A stretch of 64,000 nucleotides of DNA from a virus (lineage: Duplodnaviria > Caudoviricetes): the IMG/VR virus record IMGVR_UViG_3300028533_000217, positions 34,307 to 98,306 of that record. One strand, written 5' to 3'. Under the pieces are notes generated by a model. It was given only the letters and a program-made list of their open reading frames with translations, made no database searches and was not told the DNA's origin. Of the stretch, positions 5,262-58,759 are shown piece by piece. Made by a program: the position numbers and the translations under genes. Each line of letters starts with the position of its first letter. The first letter of the stretch is position 1.

Positions 5262-5300
5262 GTAAAAGATAATATTTCAATACTATATTATATAATTGAA
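5262..5300 (+). promoter_or_regulatory. Putative early promoter
   Basis: GTAAAAGATAATATTTCAATACTATATTATATAATTGAA. Confidence 0.7.
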
Positions 5301-5332
5301 ATATAATAAATATTATTTGGGGGTTTGATACC

Positions 5333-5746
5333 ATGAAAGAAAATTTAAATGGTTATAGAAAACAATTTAAAGGAAATGGTAGCGATGAACCTACAGATAA
5401 ACAAAAGAATATAATTAAAAAATTAAAAGCATTTTATGGAGATGACGTAATTCCTGATTGTAATACAAAAGGAGCAGCGTGGAGATGTATTAACAAATAT
5501 CAAGAAGTTGTAAAATTCGACAGAACTAAAAATGAATTTTATATTGAAGATGTTTCAGTAACTAATAAAACATCTTACAGATTAATAACAGAGGATGAAT
5601 ATATATGTGCAAAATTAATTAAAGAAGTTAAAAAATTAATGACAGAAAAAAATATAGAAGAATTTGAAGAAACTTTGAGTTATATAGGAGATTATAGTAT
5701 AATAAAAGACGTATGTGAATGTATATTAAAACAACAAAATCAGTAG
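5333..5746 (+). CDS. Hypothetical early protein
   Basis: ORF after early promoter; shares an IIxxLKxFYGxD motif with the next gene. Confidence 0.6.
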   Translation: MKENLNGYRKQFKGNGSDEPTDKQKNIIKKLKAFYGDDVIPDCNTKGAAWRCINKYQEVVKFDRTKNEFYIEDVSVTNKTSYRLITEDEYICAKLIKEVKKLMTEKNIEEFEETLSYIGDYSIIKDVCECILKQQNQ

Positions 5747-7289: not shown

Positions 7290-7412
7290 ATGAAAAAAGA
7301 TTTAGGAAAATTTCTAATAGCAACAGGATCTGTAGAATCATATAACAATAAGCCAAGTTTAATAAGGGTATTAATATATAAATTTAAAAGACTAATTAAT
7401 AAGGAGATGTAG
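7290..7412 (+). CDS. 40-aa small basic protein (not in ORF track)
   Basis: RBS aaggaggt; MKKDLGKFLIATGSVESYNNKPSLIRVLIYKFKRLINKEM; fills the gap before infA. Confidence 0.55.
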   Translation: MKKDLGKFLIATGSVESYNNKPSLIRVLIYKFKRLINKEM

Positions 7413-7413
7413 T

Positions 7414-7635
7414 ATGGGTAAGAGTAAAGATATAATGAAAATAAAAGGAACTGTAATAAAATGTCTGCCTGGAGCTAAATTTATAGTTCAGGCAGATGAA
7501 GTTGATGTAACAGCAACATGTGTATTATCAGGTAAACTAAGACAAAATAAAATAATGTTAGTTGAAAATGATAAAGTAGAATTTGAAATATCAATTTACG
7601 ATTTAACAACCGGAAGAATAGTTTGGAGATACTAA
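7414..7635 (+). CDS. infA: Translation initiation factor IF-1
   Basis: KDIMKIKGTVIKCLPGAKF...LSGKLRQNKI....DKVEFEISIYDLTTGRIVWRY matches IF-1 along its full length. Confidence 0.92.
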   Translation: MGKSKDIMKIKGTVIKCLPGAKFIVQADEVDVTATCVLSGKLRQNKIMLVENDKVEFEISIYDLTTGRIVWRY

Positions 7636-7672
7636 TTTGATAAGAGGAAAAATTCCTCTTATCAAATTTTAT
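7634..7672 (+). terminator. Intrinsic terminator after infA
   Basis: aatttgataagaggaa-aaa-ttcctcttatcaaatt followed by Ts. Confidence 0.75.
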
Positions 7673-7681
7673 ATTTTACAT

Positions 7682-7693
7682 AACATAATTATA
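7682..7693 (+). promoter_or_regulatory. Late promoter driving the tandem ncRNA
   Basis: AACA taatta TA. Confidence 0.6.
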
Positions 7694-7696
7694 AAT

Positions 7697-7976
7697 ATAC
7701 TGTGAAGTCGATATGAATATGTAAGTCAAAAGCTTACATACAATGGCGCGAAACAAGTGGTGCTGATGTAAACATCAGATGGATGGCAGGTGTGACCTGA
7801 CAGCCATGCGGAATAGGTCATTGTCAAACAGTATTTACACTGTGAAGTTCATATCATATGTAAGTCAAAAGCTTACATACAATGGCGCGAAACAAGTGGT
7901 GCTGATGTAAACATCAGATGGATGGCAGGTGTGACCTGACAGCCATGCGGAATAGGTCATTGTCAAACAGTATTTA
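7697..7976 (+). ncRNA. Tandemly duplicated ~140-nt structured RNA of unknown family
   Basis: Two copies (7699-7837, 7839-7976) with an identical 121-nt core; GC-rich relative to the genome; nested stems; flanked by promoter and terminator. Confidence 0.7.
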
Positions 7977-7991
7977 ATTTACTTTTACATA

Positions 7992-8016
7992 GAGATAACC
8001 TTTAATAGGTTATCTC
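7992..8016 (+). terminator. Terminator-like hairpin after the tandem RNA
   Basis: gagataacct-ttaat-aggttatctc; weak U-tail. Confidence 0.55.
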
Positions 8017-8033
8017 AAATTATTTTAAAAGGA

Positions 8034-8714
8034 GTGATTTATATGTATATAACAATAGAATCTGAAGTTCATAAAGATTGGGGTTATGGATTAGAATTTA
8101 GATATTACGTTGACATGGATAATACATGGTGGTATTGTTATGAAGATATATGTGATTATATAGAATTAAATCAACAAGTTGCTGATAAAATATATAGACA
8201 CAAATTACAAGAAGATGATAAAAGAACCGTATATGACAGAAACCATAACAATAATCGTGGGGAACAAGAAACGATAGTTCTATATTTTATATCTTCCAAT
8301 GCTGTAAGATATATGGTGAAACGTAATAATGAACGTAACAGTAGATTAATAAAGGTTATGAACAATTTGGAATTCGTTAGTGGAGCTCATGAAATATTTA
8401 ACGATAACGAAGAGTTAAAAGAAAGAATAAATGTTTTAGGTAAATCTATAGAAAAATATGATTATGAAGAAATATTCTATCAGGCAAAACAATTAGTTGA
8501 ATCTGAATCGGGTAAAAATATATTAGACAAGATGGGAGTTATAGATAAAGATAAAGAATCTTTAATAGAACAGATAAAACATGAGATATACGATTATGAT
8601 GAAAATATAGAAGAAGTACAATTAACCATGAGAAACCTAAATGAAGAAAAGAAAGTTAAATTTAAAAAATCAGAAACAGAAATTCCTAAGTGGTTAAGTG
8701 AAGTTGTGAAATAA
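8034..8714 (+). CDS. Bro-N-like DNA-binding protein
   Basis: FRYYVD...WWYCYEDICDYIEL...FISSNAVRYMV resembles the Bro-N pattern. Confidence 0.5.
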   Translation: MIYMYITIESEVHKDWGYGLEFRYYVDMDNTWWYCYEDICDYIELNQQVADKIYRHKLQEDDKRTVYDRNHNNNRGEQETIVLYFISSNAVRYMVKRNNERNSRLIKVMNNLEFVSGAHEIFNDNEELKERINVLGKSIEKYDYEEIFYQAKQLVESESGKNILDKMGVIDKDKESLIEQIKHEIYDYDENIEEVQLTMRNLNEEKKVKFKKSETEIPKWLSEVVK

Positions 8715-8770
8715 TTCTAAACGGTGTTATATAACACCGTTTATTTTTTCTAAAGGAGGTAAAACATGAG

Positions 8771-9193
8771 ATGATACAAAATGCAGTAATATCTTATTTC
8801 TCCAAAGGAGATGAAGAAGATGCGCTTGTGGGTATTTATAATATTGCTTATAAAATAGCACAAGATAATGAGGCTATAACGTTAATATTTATAAATTTAT
8901 CAAATGATTATGATACAATAACAATAGATGATTTATCATATCCTATACCATATGGATCATATTCAGAATATAACGAGTATACGTTTGAAGAATTAGAAGA
9001 TCAAATATATTACATTTACAAAGAATTTTATTCACAAGGTGTTTTATATGAACCTGTGGTTATAATGATCCATGATGCTTCTAAGTTATGTGAAGATAAT
9101 GATGATTATCAAATCATAAGTTATTTAGATGATAAATTAACTTTATTAGATATTATGCAAGTTTATGTATTTTGTACAATAAGAGAAAAATAA
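8771..9193 (+). CDS. Acidic hypothetical protein
   Basis: ORF with RBS aaggagg. Confidence 0.6.
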   Translation: MIQNAVISYFSKGDEEDALVGIYNIAYKIAQDNEAITLIFINLSNDYDTITIDDLSYPIPYGSYSEYNEYTFEELEDQIYYIYKEFYSQGVLYEPVVIMIHDASKLCEDNDDYQIISYLDDKLTLLDIMQVYVFCTIREK

Positions 9194-9254: not shown

Positions 9255-10899
9255 ATGGCAAATCCTTTATTAAGTGCGTTAAGAGAGAATGATAAAGAAG
9301 GTTTATTTAATGCATCACCAGCAATGGTGTGTTATCCAACAGGAATTCCAACATTAGATTATCAATTAGGATATACGTTAGTATCTAAAGACCAATATGG
9401 AGCAGTAACTGGGACACATGATTGTCTTGGTTTAGTTGGTGGTAGTTTTATAACTATCATAGGAAAATCAGGAACTGCAAAAACAGCGATAGCATGTAAA
9501 ATGGGAGCGGAAATAGTTAAAAATCATAAATCAAGTTTCGTTTTACATTATGATTTAGAACAAGCATTAAACCCAACAAGGGTTATGAATGTAACAGGAT
9601 TAACAAATGCAGAATATATGGACCATTATGTATTAAAATCTTCACGTTCATATATTGAGGATATATTTGATACGATTATGGATATAGCAAATGAAAAGCA
9701 AAAGAATAAAAAACTTTATCAGTATACAACTGATTTTAAAGATGAGTTTGGTCAACCAATAACATTATACGAGCCAACAGTATTCATAATAGATTCGATA
9801 CCAGTATTGGCTACAAGACCAGATCAAAAGAAAGTTAAAGCTAAGAAAGGTTCAGGTCAAGAAGATTATTATGTTGAAGACCAAGAGATAGAAGGTCAAA
9901 CATATGCAATGAGGGTAGCAAGAGCATTAAAGCAATTCTTTAGTAGATTAATACCAATAATAAAAGAATTTAATATAACTATAATAAGTATTAACCATAT
10001 AAATCAAAAGATAGAAATAAATCCATTTGCAAAATCACAAGCACAAGTTTTATATCTAAAACAAGACGAAAGTTTGCCTGGAGGAAATGCACCCATTAAC
10101 GCAAATAGTGGCATATAATAGTAATATTATATGAAAACCTCTTTAATTGCTGGAAAGCCTAAGTCCTTTAACGAGGATATGGTAATCAGCAGCCAAGGTA
10201 TATAATTAAAAGTATGTCAAAGATGCTAAAAGAAATAGACGTAGAGGATAAAAATAAATTGTATACAAGGTTCAACGACTATCGAAAGGGTAGCTATGGA
10301 GAAAGACCATAGTGAGAACCGAGTAGAGTACACTCAAGCGAGTGGAAATGGGAGGGTTCCTATATTTGGTAACAGAATATAGGATTATGATATAGTCTGC
10401 TCTATATGGAAACATATAGAAGGTATAGAAGTAGCGTTCTATATCGTAACAAATAGGATATTTTGCTAATACATTAATAAAACATGTTGCAGTAGGAAGT
10501 TCTAAATGTACGGTAGAAGAAGATGGATATTCAGGATTTAGAATAAATGCTGAAATAATAAAATCAAGAACGAATATATCTGGAGCAAAAGTCCCAATGA
10601 TATATGACCAAGATCACGGATTTAGTAAGGAAAGAACATTATTAGAATATGCAAGAGATTTAGGATTAATTAATGGATCTAGAATAGCTGCTAGATATTT
10701 AGGTGATGATGATAGTGTTAAATTTAACGAAAAGGATATAGTAAACGAATATCAGAATAGAGAAGAAGTACGAGCAGCTTTTGATAAGTGGGTGTACCCA
10801 CATCTAGAACAAATGTTATCTAGAGTAAATAAAGAAGAAGAAAAAGAAATGATGGAAAAAGACCAAAATGATTTATTAAACATAATAGATGAAGATTAG
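9255..10899 (+). CDS. RecA/UvsX-like recombinase, intron-split (exons 9255-10096 and 10458-10899, ~427 aa)
   Basis: PTGIPTLD, Walker A GKSGTAKT, DLEQAL, IIDSIP, INHI; spliced junction gives the RecA L2-adjacent motif PGGNAPI|YFANTLIK; KSRTN. Confidence 0.88.
10097..10457 (+). mobile_element. Group I intron, no internal ORF (361 nt)
   Basis: 5' exon ends cccaT pairing with IGS gtgg; core nearly identical to the 1610 intron; terminal G at 10457; removal restores the frame. Confidence 0.9.
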
Positions 10900-16173: not shown

Positions 16174-18261
16174 ATGAGTAAGAAAATATCAATATACCAT
16201 CAATTAGATGTAATTCATAAAGAGTTATTAAAAATGGATGATGATTCTGTAAATGAAATAGTCGAAATGCTTAAAGGGATAAACTTCGAAGGTATTGTAG
16301 AATTCTTCAATGAAGCTGATAAATTAGATGATATGGATTTATTTACATGTAGGAAACTTGTAGAAATACTACAATTTATTTATAATAATACAGATATAGT
16401 CCCACCAGTATCAGATGAGACGTATGATAAATTATATCAGATAATGTTAGATGCTGGTTTAGGAGATATTGTGGGTTCCGTTAATAGTCAAGGTAAACCA
16501 GTTAGAGAGCATAGATATCCTGATTTAAGAGGAACTTTAAATAAAGTACATTTTGTGTTTAATCTTGATAAAGAAGGAGATAAAAGAAGAAGTATAGAAG
16601 ATTGGATAACAACTATAGAAAATATCTTAGGATATCCTATAAATAATTCTAAAGATTTTGAATTAAGATTACAAGCTAAATGGGATGGATGTTCGGCAGT
16701 ATTCGAGTGTGATGAAGAAGGTGAATTAGAACATGTATTAATGAGGGGTGATACGGAAAAGAACTTGGCAGTTGATATATTAGAGTTATTTAAAGATAAA
16801 ATAAGTTTTAATCAATTTGCAAATGGTAAAGATAAATTTGCAATACAAACAGAAGTTCTTATGAATCAATCTGCATATGAAAGAATAATAAAAGAATATA
16901 AAGATTTCAAATCTCCTCGTTCAGCAACTTCATCAATATTAAATGAAAAAGTTTTACAACCAGAACTTACAGAGTATTTAACAGTAGAGCCATTAAGAAT
17001 ACAATATGTGGGAAAACAACCCGAAATAATTCCAAATGAAGAATTTGATATGATATCAAACTTATTTGATTTGAGAGATATTAGAGAATGTATAAGACAA
17101 ATAAATGAACATGCTAAAGCTGAAGGTAAAAGTACAGATGGTGTAGTATTACATCTTATAGATAAAAATATGCAGAATAAATTAGGTAGAGACGGAGCTA
17201 TAAACAGATATGAAGTTGCTTATAAATTTCCAGCAGAAGCTAAGAAGGCTAAATTAATAGATATAGATTTCTCTTATGGATTAGGAGGTAATATAACACC
17301 TGTAGCGAAAATAGAACCTATTGTAATGTTAGGTAAAACTATAAGTTCTATATCTATAGGTTCTATAGATAGATTTAGAAGTATGCAACATAAATTATGT
17401 TCAGGAAGTGAGATAATAGTAAGATATGAAATAATTCCATATATGGAAGTGAATGATACATGCAAAGTAAATGGATTCGGTAAACCTTTCTATATTCCAA
17501 CACATTGTAAACATTGTGGTCATCAATTAGTAGAGGATCCATTATTAAAATGTATTAATGAAGATTGTCCTTCAAGAATAATAGGGAATGTTGTAAACTA
17601 TATAAATAAGATGAGAATAGAAAATATAAATATAGAAACAGTTTCAACATTATTTGACCAAGGTATAATAACTAAAATAGAATCATTGTATGAACTAGAT
17701 AAACATAAATCTAAAATAGTTTCATTACCAGGATTTGGAGAAAAATCTTATGAAAAAATGATTGATGGTGTTAATAAGCGTAAAGTTGTATTTGATTATG
17801 AACTATTAGGTTCATTAGGAATTCAATCTATAGGTGTAAGAATGTTTAAGAAGATATTATCCGTTATGGATTTAGAAACATTATTGAGATTAGCTAAAGA
17901 CGGAATGTTGGCAATTAATTTAATGGGGTTATCTGGATTTGGAGAGAAAACAGCTAATAGAGTTCAACATGGTATATTAAGTAAATTACCGACTATATAT
18001 TATCTATTGAACGTTATACAATTAAAAGAAAAAGTTGCTCCAGGAAAATTGAAAGGAAAAGTATGTTTCTCTCAAATAAGAGATCCTAAATTTGAATCAG
18101 TATTAATACAAAATGGATATGAAGTGGTTGATTCATTAACTAAATCTACAGATTATTTAGTAGTACCAAATCCTGAAGTAACATCTAGTAAAATAACAAA
18201 AGCTAAAAAGTATGGAATTCAAATATATAGCTTAGAGGAAGCAAAATTAAAATTAAAATAA
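16174..18261 (+). CDS. ligA: NAD-dependent DNA ligase
   Basis: SDETYD, KWDG adenylation motif, DGVV, AYKFPA, Zn finger CKHC..C....C, HhH repeats, C-terminal BRCT. Confidence 0.95.
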   Translation: MSKKISIYHQLDVIHKELLKMDDDSVNEIVEMLKGINFEGIVEFFNEADKLDDMDLFTCRKLVEILQFIYNNTDIVPPVSDETYDKLYQIMLDAGLGDIVGSVNSQGKPVREHRYPDLRGTLNKVHFVFNLDKEGDKRRSIEDWITTIENILGYPINNSKDFELRLQAKWDGCSAVFECDEEGELEHVLMRGDTEKNLAVDILELFKDKISFNQFANGKDKFAIQTEVLMNQSAYERIIKEYKDFKSPRSATSSILNEKVLQPELTEYLTVEPLRIQYVGKQPEIIPNEEFDMISNLFDLRDIRECIRQINEHAKAEGKSTDGVVLHLIDKNMQNKLGRDGAINRYEVAYKFPAEAKKAKLIDIDFSYGLGGNITPVAKIEPIVMLGKTISSISIGSIDRFRSMQHKLCSGSEIIVRYEIIPYMEVNDTCKVNGFGKPFYIPTHCKHCGHQLVEDPLLKCINEDCPSRIIGNVVNYINKMRIENINIETVSTLFDQGIITKIESLYELDKHKSKIVSLPGFGEKSYEKMIDGVNKRKVVFDYELLGSLGIQSIGVRMFKKILSVMDLETLLRLAKDGMLAINLMGLSGFGEKTANRVQHGILSKLPTIYYLLNVIQLKEKVAPGKLKGKVCFSQIRDPKFESVLIQNGYEVVDSLTKSTDYLVVPNPEVTSSKITKAKKYGIQIYSLEEAKLKLK

Positions 18262-45616: not shown

Positions 45617-45648
45617 AAAAAATATATATAATTTTAGTTAAAATTAAG

Positions 45649-45815
45649 AGGTAGAGTTAGCTACAGAGTCCACCCTCTGCGAGCATACGGTACAGAGTCC
45701 ACCCTCTGCGACCATACATCATTCTACGCCTATTCAGGTAGAGTTAGCTACAGAGTCCACCCTCTGCGAGCATACGGTACAGAGTCCACCCTCTGCGACC
45801 ATACATCATTCTACG
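45649..45815 (-). repeat. Nested tandem repeat / hairpin-array ncRNA
   Basis: Two identical 80-nt units (87-nt period); four copies of tacagagtccaccctctgcga at 45662, 45691, 45749 and 45778. Confidence 0.9.
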
Positions 45816-45842
45816 AGAACTTTTAACTATTATTCATTTGTT

Positions 45843-45883
45843 ATCAATTATATAATATATAATTGAAATATAACCTTTTTACA
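45843..45883 (-). promoter_or_regulatory. Consensus early promoter driving the repeat array
   Basis: TGTAAAAAGGTTATATTTCAATTATATATTATATAATTGAT on the minus strand. Confidence 0.75.
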
Positions 45884-57688: not shown

Positions 57689-58759
57689 TTAATTAATTTT
57701 CTGCTCTACTATTTTCATTATTTCATACACTTCTGTTAACCCTGGTTCATTAGCTAATCTAAAATAATTTTCTATCATCGTATTCATTTTAAATACGTTT
57801 AAATAACATCCTAAATAACATAGCATTTTTTCATTAGCAAAGTCACTACAACTCAATTTTTGCGATAATTCAAACCAATCTTGAATATAAACGCTTAAAG
57901 TATTTAATATCTCATCTGGCAATTCACAATATTCTTTAGGTAAAGTTATACTAACAAACTCTTCTTTTATTATATCTAGAAAATTTTCTACCTTTATATG
58001 TTGCTTTGGTATACTATTAACTATTTTTCTATACGCTACCAGACTGCAAGATCCTATAATAGAAGCTTTAACATCAGCTTTATAATTATTTATACAATGT
58101 TTTATATACTCTTCATTGGAAATAATATTGACAAAAGTTGTTCCGTTTGTTAATAAATTACTCCTATTATCTTCATCCAGCATGATTCGTATAAATATAT
58201 CATCTGCTATTATAATATCATTTAAAAGATTTGCAACTGAAACCATATTTTCTAATAATTCATCATACTCACTCATCAAAACTGCTATGTCTAGCAATTC
58301 ATCATATTTAAGACAAGAATTAATAAAATACATAAGTTCTTTAATAGAACAAGAAATTCTGACATTAACTAACCTACTATTTGGTTGTATATACGATAAC
58401 AATCCTTCAGGTAATTCGTATCTATCGGTTAATATTTCACCCCACGCATTAAATTGTTTTAATAACACTAAATATCTATCCATATCTTCTTTATTTGAAA
58501 AAGGTATTTCCTCATAATCGTTAGTCATTTCCACAAGTTCAACATTTATATCTTTCATAGATATTAACATTGTATATCTAATCATGTTTATACCGTTTAA
58601 TTGAAACGTAAAATTAAAATTATCTAAGTCATCCAATATATTTTTTATCCTATTATTTTCTTTATATGTTCTTTCGTTATTCAATAGCTCTCTGATCATT
58701 TGAATAATATCATAAAGCATTTCTTCAAAAATGTCACAATTCTCAATAACCATGTTCAT
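57689..58759 (-). CDS. Degenerate tandem ThyX-like protein
   Basis: FTFQLNGIN, YIQPNSRLVNVRISCSIKELMYFI and CSLVAYRKI...FKMNTMIENYFRL echo ThyX scaffold motifs twice; RHRxxS motif absent. Confidence 0.5.
   Translation of the reverse strand: MNMVIENCDIFEEMLYDIIQMIRELLNNERTYKENNRIKNILDDLDNFNFTFQLNGINMIRYTMLISMKDINVELVEMTNDYEEIPFSNKEDMDRYLVLLKQFNAWGEILTDRYELPEGLLSYIQPNSRLVNVRISCSIKELMYFINSCLKYDELLDIAVLMSEYDELLENMVSVANLLNDIIIADDIFIRIMLDEDNRSNLLTNGTTFVNIISNEEYIKHCINNYKADVKASIIGSCSLVAYRKIVNSIPKQHIKVENFLDIIKEEFVSITLPKEYCELPDEILNTLSVYIQDWFELSQKLSCSDFANEKMLCYLGCYLNVFKMNTMIENYFRLANEPGLTEVYEIMKIVEQKIN

Follow-up and report, generated by a model that had tools for sequence, protein, structure and literature searches.

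The tandem repeat downstream of the infA homolog, as judged from covariation and pairing across homologous loci, encodes one RNA of ~280 nt, and its two units are the two domains, pseudo-two-fold in arrangement, of that molecule. This RNA sits in an accessory cassette of jumbo phages in which it is followed directly by an ORF with a Bro-N-like head. The window, meaning the whole 64,000-nt stretch analysed, makes up the 3′-terminal 64 kb of an IMG/VR record of 98 kb with a CheckV completeness of 47%. Within it, the units lie head to tail at 7699-7837 and 7838-7976; they repeat every 139 nt with 97% matches and share an identical 121-nt core (7717-7837 and 7856-7976). The original prediction, made from the letters of the window, had described two copies with an identical core and diverged 5′ loops; they were confirmed at 7699-7976, and its view that they are no assembly artefact is supported. 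Upstream lies the gene for IF-1 (infA homolog, 7414-7635; Pfam eIF-1a PF01176, 52.6 bits, E 3.5e-14, above the gathering score of 30.2 bits), which ends in a terminator-like hairpin on the + strand (7634-7668; 16-bp stem followed by a T tract) that aligns with the single infA terminator of relatives. Downstream, all on the + strand, follow a hairpin at 7992-8016, an AGGAG ribosome binding site read from the sequence (RBS; 8030-8034), the partner ORF of 223 aa (8043-8714) and a terminator (8718-8743; 11-bp stem, then TTTTTT).

Whole related records were searched by BLAST, protein profile and covariance model, and seven cassette lineages (u, that of the window, and v, w, x, y, z and t) were found at eight loci, in different positions of six related jumbo-phage records. 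Lineage v, present in the 228-kb phage G003 and the 203-kb phage G006, has two 145-nt units that are 99% identical and an ORF 26-28% identical to the window ORF; lineage w, at another site of G006, has two 143-nt units, 100% identical, and an ORF with 37-39% identity. Lineage x (2 x 127 nt) comes from the same phage as the window; it lies 23 kb upstream of array u at a site syntenic with that of w, and the family profile recognises its ORF at E 3e-37. Two 133-nt units, 100% identical, accompany the family ORF of lineage z in the 203-kb phage G002, three more diverged units accompany a distant family ORF in lineage y, and the halves of lineage t (G001) share an identical 73-nt block and are accompanied by a weak family ORF. 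At the locus of t (L078:1150-1415; G001 ~58250-58520) this block is 3′, and the 5′ parts, which comprise the regions of helices P1 and P2 described below, differ. Models R1 and R2 miss lineage t, so the family is wider than these models detect. A match of both models in G001, at 108,766, proved to be an ordinary terminator between convergent genes and was rejected.

The family ORF stands directly after the RNA in cassettes u, x, v (both records), w, z, y and t. No RNA array without the ORF was found with model R2 in ten phage records, and an RNA of this kind precedes each family ORF for which upstream DNA is available; the single family ORF with no visible RNA, in G004, sits at the very end of its contig. 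The more distant jumbo phages G005 and G007-G009 had neither RNA nor ORF. Between lineages, RNA identity was correlated with protein identity (r 0.78, exact Mantel p 0.014). The seven lineages all come from one clade of AT-rich jumbo phages. This co-divergence fits joint inheritance of the two parts and would also agree with cognate pairing, and simple co-inheritance would give the same pattern.

The position of the array beside infA invited a connection with IF-1. Relatives of the IF-1 protein are numerous and lie on contigs of 128-300 kb, and we compared nine syntenic infA loci with IF-1 identities of 62-88%. None had an RNA unit within 3 kb. In the loci that extend past the infA terminator, the next feature, within ~80-200 nt, is an RBS and a homolog of ORF 8771-9193, or else one of the recombinase gene behind it; homology between these relatives and the window picks up again at about 8745-8810. 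Since the relatives lack the RNA at the infA site, window positions ~7670-8745 are an insertion of ~1.1 kb, with the hairpin at 7634-7668 as its left edge and the terminator at 8718-8743 as its right edge. The insertion holds a promoter-like stretch, the RNA, the hairpin, ORF 8043-8714 and a terminator of its own. Judged from these loci, IF-1 is a chance neighbour; the gene with which the RNA moves to other genome positions is the Bro-N-like ORF that follows it, and the suggestion that the RNA works with IF-1 was not borne out.

The promoter-like motif ATAACATAATTATA (ATAACA-N6-TA; 7680-7693, + strand) precedes the units. Motifs of this class precede arrays u, v and y, and the form ATAACAAATA occurs upstream of several genes; in the window as a whole, ATAACA-N6-TA is only mildly enriched (18 occurrences vs 11.6 +/- 3.3 expected). 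A promoter belonging to the RNA had been predicted here: the motif is present and transcription from it is probable, and given the mild enrichment we regard such a promoter as plausible. A 9-nt direct repeat, TTTTACATA, occurs at 7674-7682 and 7983-7991 on either side of the array and could be a duplicated piece of promoter or a trace of array insertion. The hairpin predicted after the units was found at 7992-8016 (+ strand; 10-bp stem, tail AAATTATTTT). It resembles a terminator and is confined to window cassette u, with no equivalent between RNA and gene in lineages w, z and x. Cassettes u, x, w and z have the string AAAGGAGTGATTT..ATG in conserved form.

Three other places in the window were noted. 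A second, unrelated tandem RNA-like repeat of 2 x ~79 nt lies at 45640-45815 in a minus-strand context; each unit holds two copies of a CAGAG..CUCUG hairpin, and a ATAACAAATGAATA motif occurs just upstream at 45831-45844 on the minus strand. The order of repeat, hairpin and ORF at the present locus does resemble this 45.6-kb locus, as had been noticed in proposing a shared promoter-repeat-hairpin-ORF layout. A UvsX-like recombinase gene is interrupted by ~360 bp at 10097-10457, where the flanks are contiguous in relatives L003 and L025; the insert is probably an intron and was not flagged in the Rfam gathering scan. Finally, the DNA at 5268-5452 is 75-79% identical to DNA of Staphylococcus Twort-like and Bacillus phages, and its counterparts are a group I intron or unannotated in some records; here it overlaps the start of ORF 5333-5746.

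The covariation shows that the units are a real structured RNA encoded on the + strand. Each domain is closed by P1 and contains the hairpin P2; a further stem, P3, surrounds a three-way junction formed by a putative GGU/GCC helix and the hairpins P4 and P5a. Domain 1 (7699-7832, + strand; 159.6 bits with model R1, with covariation in all five numbered helices) comprises P1 ACUGU/ACAGU (7699-7703/7828-7832), P2 UAUGUAAG/CUUACAUA (7718-7726/7732-7740), P3 CAAUGGC/GUCAUUG (7741-7747/7817-7823), the junction helix (7757-7761/7803-7807), P4 CUGAUG/CAUCAG (7763-7768/7773-7778), with a UAAA loop, and P5a CAGGU/ACCUG (7787-7791/7795-7799). Domain 2 (7839-7971, + strand; 154.5 bits with R1) has a core 100% identical to that of domain 1; its helices lie at the domain 1 positions +139 from 7856 onward, and its P1 is at 7839-7843/7967-7971.

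When three lineages were aligned with MAFFT, 15 of 37 pairs were found changed on both sides yet still paired, and 93.9% of cells were paired, compared with 0-3 doubly changed pairs and 28-36% of cells in slid controls. With five lineages, the figures rose to 22 of 38 pairs and 94.7% of cells (slid controls, 3-6 pairs and 31-40% of cells), and the observed values were reached by none of 500 shuffles on four measures and by 2 of 500 on a fifth; this alignment was fitted to the structural model, which favours it, and the alignments fitted in this way are A11 and A12. P1, P2, P3, P4 and P5a contain three to six covarying pairs each. Because G.U pairs outnumber A.C mismatches 27 to 2 in the helices, the folded strand is the + strand, in the sense of the ORF. 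The folding energy of a single unit only moderately beat that of shuffles (z -2.3 to -2.45, and about -2.4 on both strands), so the structural case is built on covariation and not on energy.

Thus a structured non-coding RNA, as originally proposed, is supported by homologs in which 22 of 38 pairs are doubly changed and still paired, and five of the stems drawn for it (P1, P2, P3, P4 and P5a) stand on the same evidence. The sixth, AUGGC/GCCAU, was dropped: its 5′ strand is missing in lineage x, which has no GG there. Better supported by the comparison is the helix GGU(7759-7761)/GCC(7803-7805) as a candidate closing helix of the three-way junction, which can form in all lineages and, being invariant, shows no covariation. 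The statement that the units hold no ORF needs a small correction, in that short ORFs of 43 aa (+ strand) and 33 aa (- strand) run over them; the substitution pattern is that of RNA helices. Several unpaired nucleotides (UGAAGU, GUAAAC and GUCAAA) are conserved. A hammerhead-like reading of CUGAUG/GAAAC was considered and rejected, the spacing being, by eye, too short for the required stems and Rfam giving no match.

The two copies in the window differ solely in the linker between P1 and P2, at 7710-7718 (GAUAUGAAU) and 7847-7855 (GUUCAUAUC), and these two + strand segments pair with each other. The heteroduplex has nine pairs and a predicted energy of -10.6 kcal/mol, vs -6.9 and -7.6 kcal/mol for self-pairing; in other words, the linkers are complementary to one another while the palindrome within each copy is broken. 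In the unconstrained minimum free energy (MFE) structure of the window array all nine linker pairs are present, with a pair probability of 0.96. The sister lineages are palindromic at the same place, with UGUAUAUACA in w and z, UGGUAUAUCA in v, CUGUACAG in x and UGUAUACA in units y2 and y3. The linker is the best-conserved unpaired stretch of the unit, and a linker helix of 8-10 bp can form in six of six lineages with sequences that differ between lineages; it appears in the unconstrained whole-array MFE of five of the six, and at most 1% of shuffled linkers were as stable within an adjacent unit pair. This helix was judged by explicit duplexes and register-tolerant whole-array folds; a column-based pair count is unsuited to it, MAFFT setting 1-nt indels differently in the two halves.

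We read the copies as one two-domain RNA because the stretch that sets them apart is the one through which they pair, and because the sister lineages are palindromic there. Linker-linker pairing explains the diverged 5′ loops, and it counts against both a duplication for dosage, as first proposed, and a reading of the palindrome as a DNA operator. Unit identity was 96-100% within arrays (five lineages) vs 54-74% between lineages, which implies that the domains are kept alike, by selection or by gene conversion. Unit 1 of cassette y (L063:1247-1629; G003 16974-17356) has a palindrome of its own, GUGCAC, with a compensating central AU to GC change relative to units 2 and 3, and might pair with a second molecule.

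A long stem brackets the whole array in v, w, x, y and t, with energies of -36 to -40 kcal/mol. It comprises 33-44 pairs in v, w, x and y, where the sequences differ between lineages, and in x and y it is more stable on the + strand owing to G.U pairs; in lineage z there is an inverted repeat of 53 nt with 79% complementarity. A long bracketing stem is missing from the window cassette (-7.9 kcal/mol), where the terminator-like hairpin at 7992-8016 is found instead. We infer that the bracketing stems are processing stems for an enzyme of the RNase III type.

Searches of known families gave no counterpart. Scanning the whole window with Rfam 15 at gathering thresholds returned no hit (riboswitches, ribozymes, pRNA, ROOL, GOLLD etc.), and a permissive scan of 7400-8300 on both strands (E<=10) returned no relevant match to the units; the sole match overlapping them was a chance snoRNA on the minus strand (E 6). 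Nothing relevant was found at E<=1 in four sister loci, and the abiF motif RF03085 had no match in the window region (E<=10) or in those four loci (E<=1). ARAGORN identified neither tRNA nor tmRNA. A blastn search of GenBank phages with the unit gave only chance matches of 40 nt, exact 18-19-mers of the core gave nothing in IMG/VR, and back-translation searches with each of the two flanking ORFs singly gave nothing. A free-stem motif pattern recovered only the same phage records in IMG/VR and nothing among 185,579 prokaryote genomes. In the literature we found no description of such an RNA or of an RNA partner for a Bro-N protein. Two of the checks named in the original prediction, a comparison with Rfam and a test of covariation among homologs in related jumbo phages, were therefore run: the first gave no family match and so did not refute it, and in the second P1, P2, P3, P4 and P5a covaried. 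The RNA family, for which covariation gives strong support, is absent from Rfam.

The predicted partner (ORF 8043-8714) has a Bro-N-like head, a long helix or helical stalk and a conserved C-terminal tail. The AlphaFold (AF2) model (pLDDT 84) begins with a β-rich head that spans residues 1-98; a helix of 34 residues and a helical bundle come next, and the tail is disordered. Against Pfam Bro-N (PF02498) the window ORF scored 20.9-22 bits (E 5.6e-4), under the gathering score of 25.6 bits, while its paralog in lineage w exceeded that score with 29.9 bits; a weak Bro-N match was seen in 19 of 41 family members. The fold of the head matched the N-terminal domains of Dachshund/Ski, Mbp1-APSES and baculovirus Orf22 with middling Z scores of 5.3-6.2. 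Foldseek against the PDB gave no match at E<=0.001 and returned the same families only weakly, and the nearest atlas structures, at TM ~0.4, all belonged to Bro-N/antirepressor clusters. Among 1.84 billion cluster representatives, 52 belong to this protein family; a further protein, P0053, is 91% identical. Six partner proteins had no PADLOC or NCBIfam match and were not ToxN/AbiQ, CptN or TenpN, and no nuclease or toxin fold was found. From these models the partner was assigned to a putative Bro-N-like/antirepressor-type fold of the DNA-binding type. To our knowledge, the Bro-N head is a DNA-binding fold without a documented RNA partner. The ~45-residue C-terminal end of the family, whose tip carries the conserved motif STCPSW-L..VVK, recurs as the terminus of phage proteins that are unrelated in other respects (L047:499-1035, G002:54983-55144 and G004:197652-197813), one of them encoded just upstream of cassette v, and may be a shared docking peptide.

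The closest known layout is that of a type III toxin-antitoxin locus, followed by the AbiF-RCd22 pair. As in ToxIN, CptIN and TenpIN, near-identical tandem RNA repeats lie directly upstream of a protein gene in what appears to be one transcription unit, RNA and protein diverge together, and the loci are accessory and mobile; type III loci are also carried by phages (PMC12283969). In its account of the Blower criteria, the same source names a Rho-independent terminator between repeats and gene (PMC12283969). The window cassette has a terminator-like hairpin at that place; w, z and x have none, so this feature is not family-wide. The repeat units of type III systems are pseudoknots of 34-50 nt (PMC12373285), whereas the units here, at 127-145 nt, lie outside that size and form five covarying helices, with domains that pair together. 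The partner differs as well, being Bro-N-like and outside the ToxN/AbiQ, CptN and TenpN endoribonuclease families.

In the phi027 prophage of C. difficile, a structured RNA with two repeated motifs, RCd22, is co-transcribed ahead of its protein partner AbiF, with which it forms a tight complex, acting in cis and in trans (PMC12373285). Like that pair, the present cassettes carry a phage-borne structured RNA with two repeats ahead of a protein gene. RCd22 is smaller, at ~100-130 nt with two ~35-nt hairpin motifs, its partner is an AbiF-like toxin rather than a Bro-N-like protein, and the window RNA has no covariance-model match to the abiF motif RF03085. In tandem glycine riboswitches and other tandem-aptamer RNAs, two homologous domains in contact form one unit ahead of a gene (PMC7161355, PMC9481103). 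The RNA described here likewise has two homologous domains in a row, in contact and ahead of a gene, but they are nearly identical and joined by a Watson-Crick linker helix, with no Rfam match and no ligand or expression platform evident. The prohead (packaging) RNA of phi29 and the ornate RNAs ROOL, GOLLD and OLE are phage-encoded RNAs whose copies join via complementary or self-complementary loops. They differ from the window RNA, in which pairing occurs within one transcript, a dedicated partner gene follows and no Rfam match is found; ROOL and GOLLD are also much larger.

On balance, we consider it probable that the accessory cassette is a cognate RNA-protein module, in which RNA and ORF are transcribed together and the RNA, excised or partly terminated, binds its partner and restrains or scaffolds it. 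In most lineages an enzyme of the RNase III type would cut the RNA out at the 33-53-bp stem that brackets it; in the window cassette a leaky terminator hairpin may take the place of that stem. The pseudo-symmetric RNA would then bind the cognate, probably dimeric, protein and hold it in check or scaffold it, following the logic of a type III toxin-antitoxin or of AbiF-RCd22, and the module would serve phage-host or phage-phage conflict rather than core replication. It is the layout alone that would cast the RNA as an antidote. We advance more tentatively, as a possibility, that these cassettes form a new class of RNA-protein conflict module in which the excised RNA clamps a dimeric Bro-N/antirepressor-type protein as antidote or switch, i.e., a type III-like toxin-antitoxin or anti-defence pair made of unrelated parts, with several mutually specific paralogous pairs per genome.

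Alternatively, the RNA could be a cis-acting leader, either an autoregulatory site for binding of the protein or a riboswitch-like sensor with the hairpin at 7992-8016 as its expression platform. RNA and ORF always share a strand, the RNA directly upstream and so close that a separate promoter would hardly fit between them; in the window a terminator-like hairpin stands immediately ahead of the RBS, and RCd22 acts partly in this way (PMC12373285). A leader nevertheless seems unlikely to us: between RNA and RBS, w, z and x show neither a terminator nor an evident platform, long stems bracket the RNA as if for excision, a protein-binding leader would be unusually large at ~280 nt and with an inter-domain helix, and no Rfam riboswitch matched. 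Less likely still is an independent trans-acting phage RNA, whether a decoy or sponge for a host or defence factor or an RNA-only assembly, that merely shares a mobile cassette with the ORF. Strong structure, a promoter-like motif of its own and excision-type flanking stems would suit such an RNA, and the palindromic linker could join separate molecules as in self-assembling ornate RNAs; but RNA and ORF occur together at eight of eight loci with correlated divergence, which is unexpected of unrelated passengers at seven insertion sites.

That the element acts as DNA, as long iterons or as palindromic operators through which a dimeric DNA-binding protein would regulate itself or mark an origin-like site, is highly improbable. 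The head of the partner is of a DNA-binding type and most lineages carry a linker that is palindromic as DNA, yet the excess of G.U over A.C points to a folded + strand, the window palindromes are broken with the copies still mutually complementary, and an operator would have no need of compensatory changes across five helices. We give as little weight to self-processing units, with a small ribozyme in each and two copies to release a unit-length, possibly circular RNA: tandem identical units and the conserved unpaired UGAAGU, GUAAAC and GUCAAA would suit a catalytic core, but no known ribozyme family matched at E<=10, and the inter-domain helix and bracketing stems already account for there being two copies. 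The idea with which the locus was first described, that duplication raises the dosage of an abundant RNA and that this RNA acts with the adjacent phage IF-1 to modulate translation, now retains hardly any credibility. The array does adjoin infA in the window, but nine related loci have infA without the RNA beside it, in relatives the RNA sits elsewhere, always with a Bro-N-like ORF, and the two copies pair with each other.

A cognate RNA-protein module of the kind we favour would be unusual in design, with near-identical domains locked by a linker helix that is kept either palindromic or, in the window, as two differing but complementary sequences. Its RNA and protein parts are short enough to synthesise, so that binding, toxicity and structure are directly testable. 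If the reading is true, it would carry the "tandem RNA plus protein" principle known from type III toxin-antitoxin systems over to an unrelated protein fold. Proteins of the Bro-N/antirepressor type, which abound in phages and large DNA viruses, are taken to bind DNA; a dedicated, co-diverging RNA partner, if confirmed, would represent a new mode of regulation for them.
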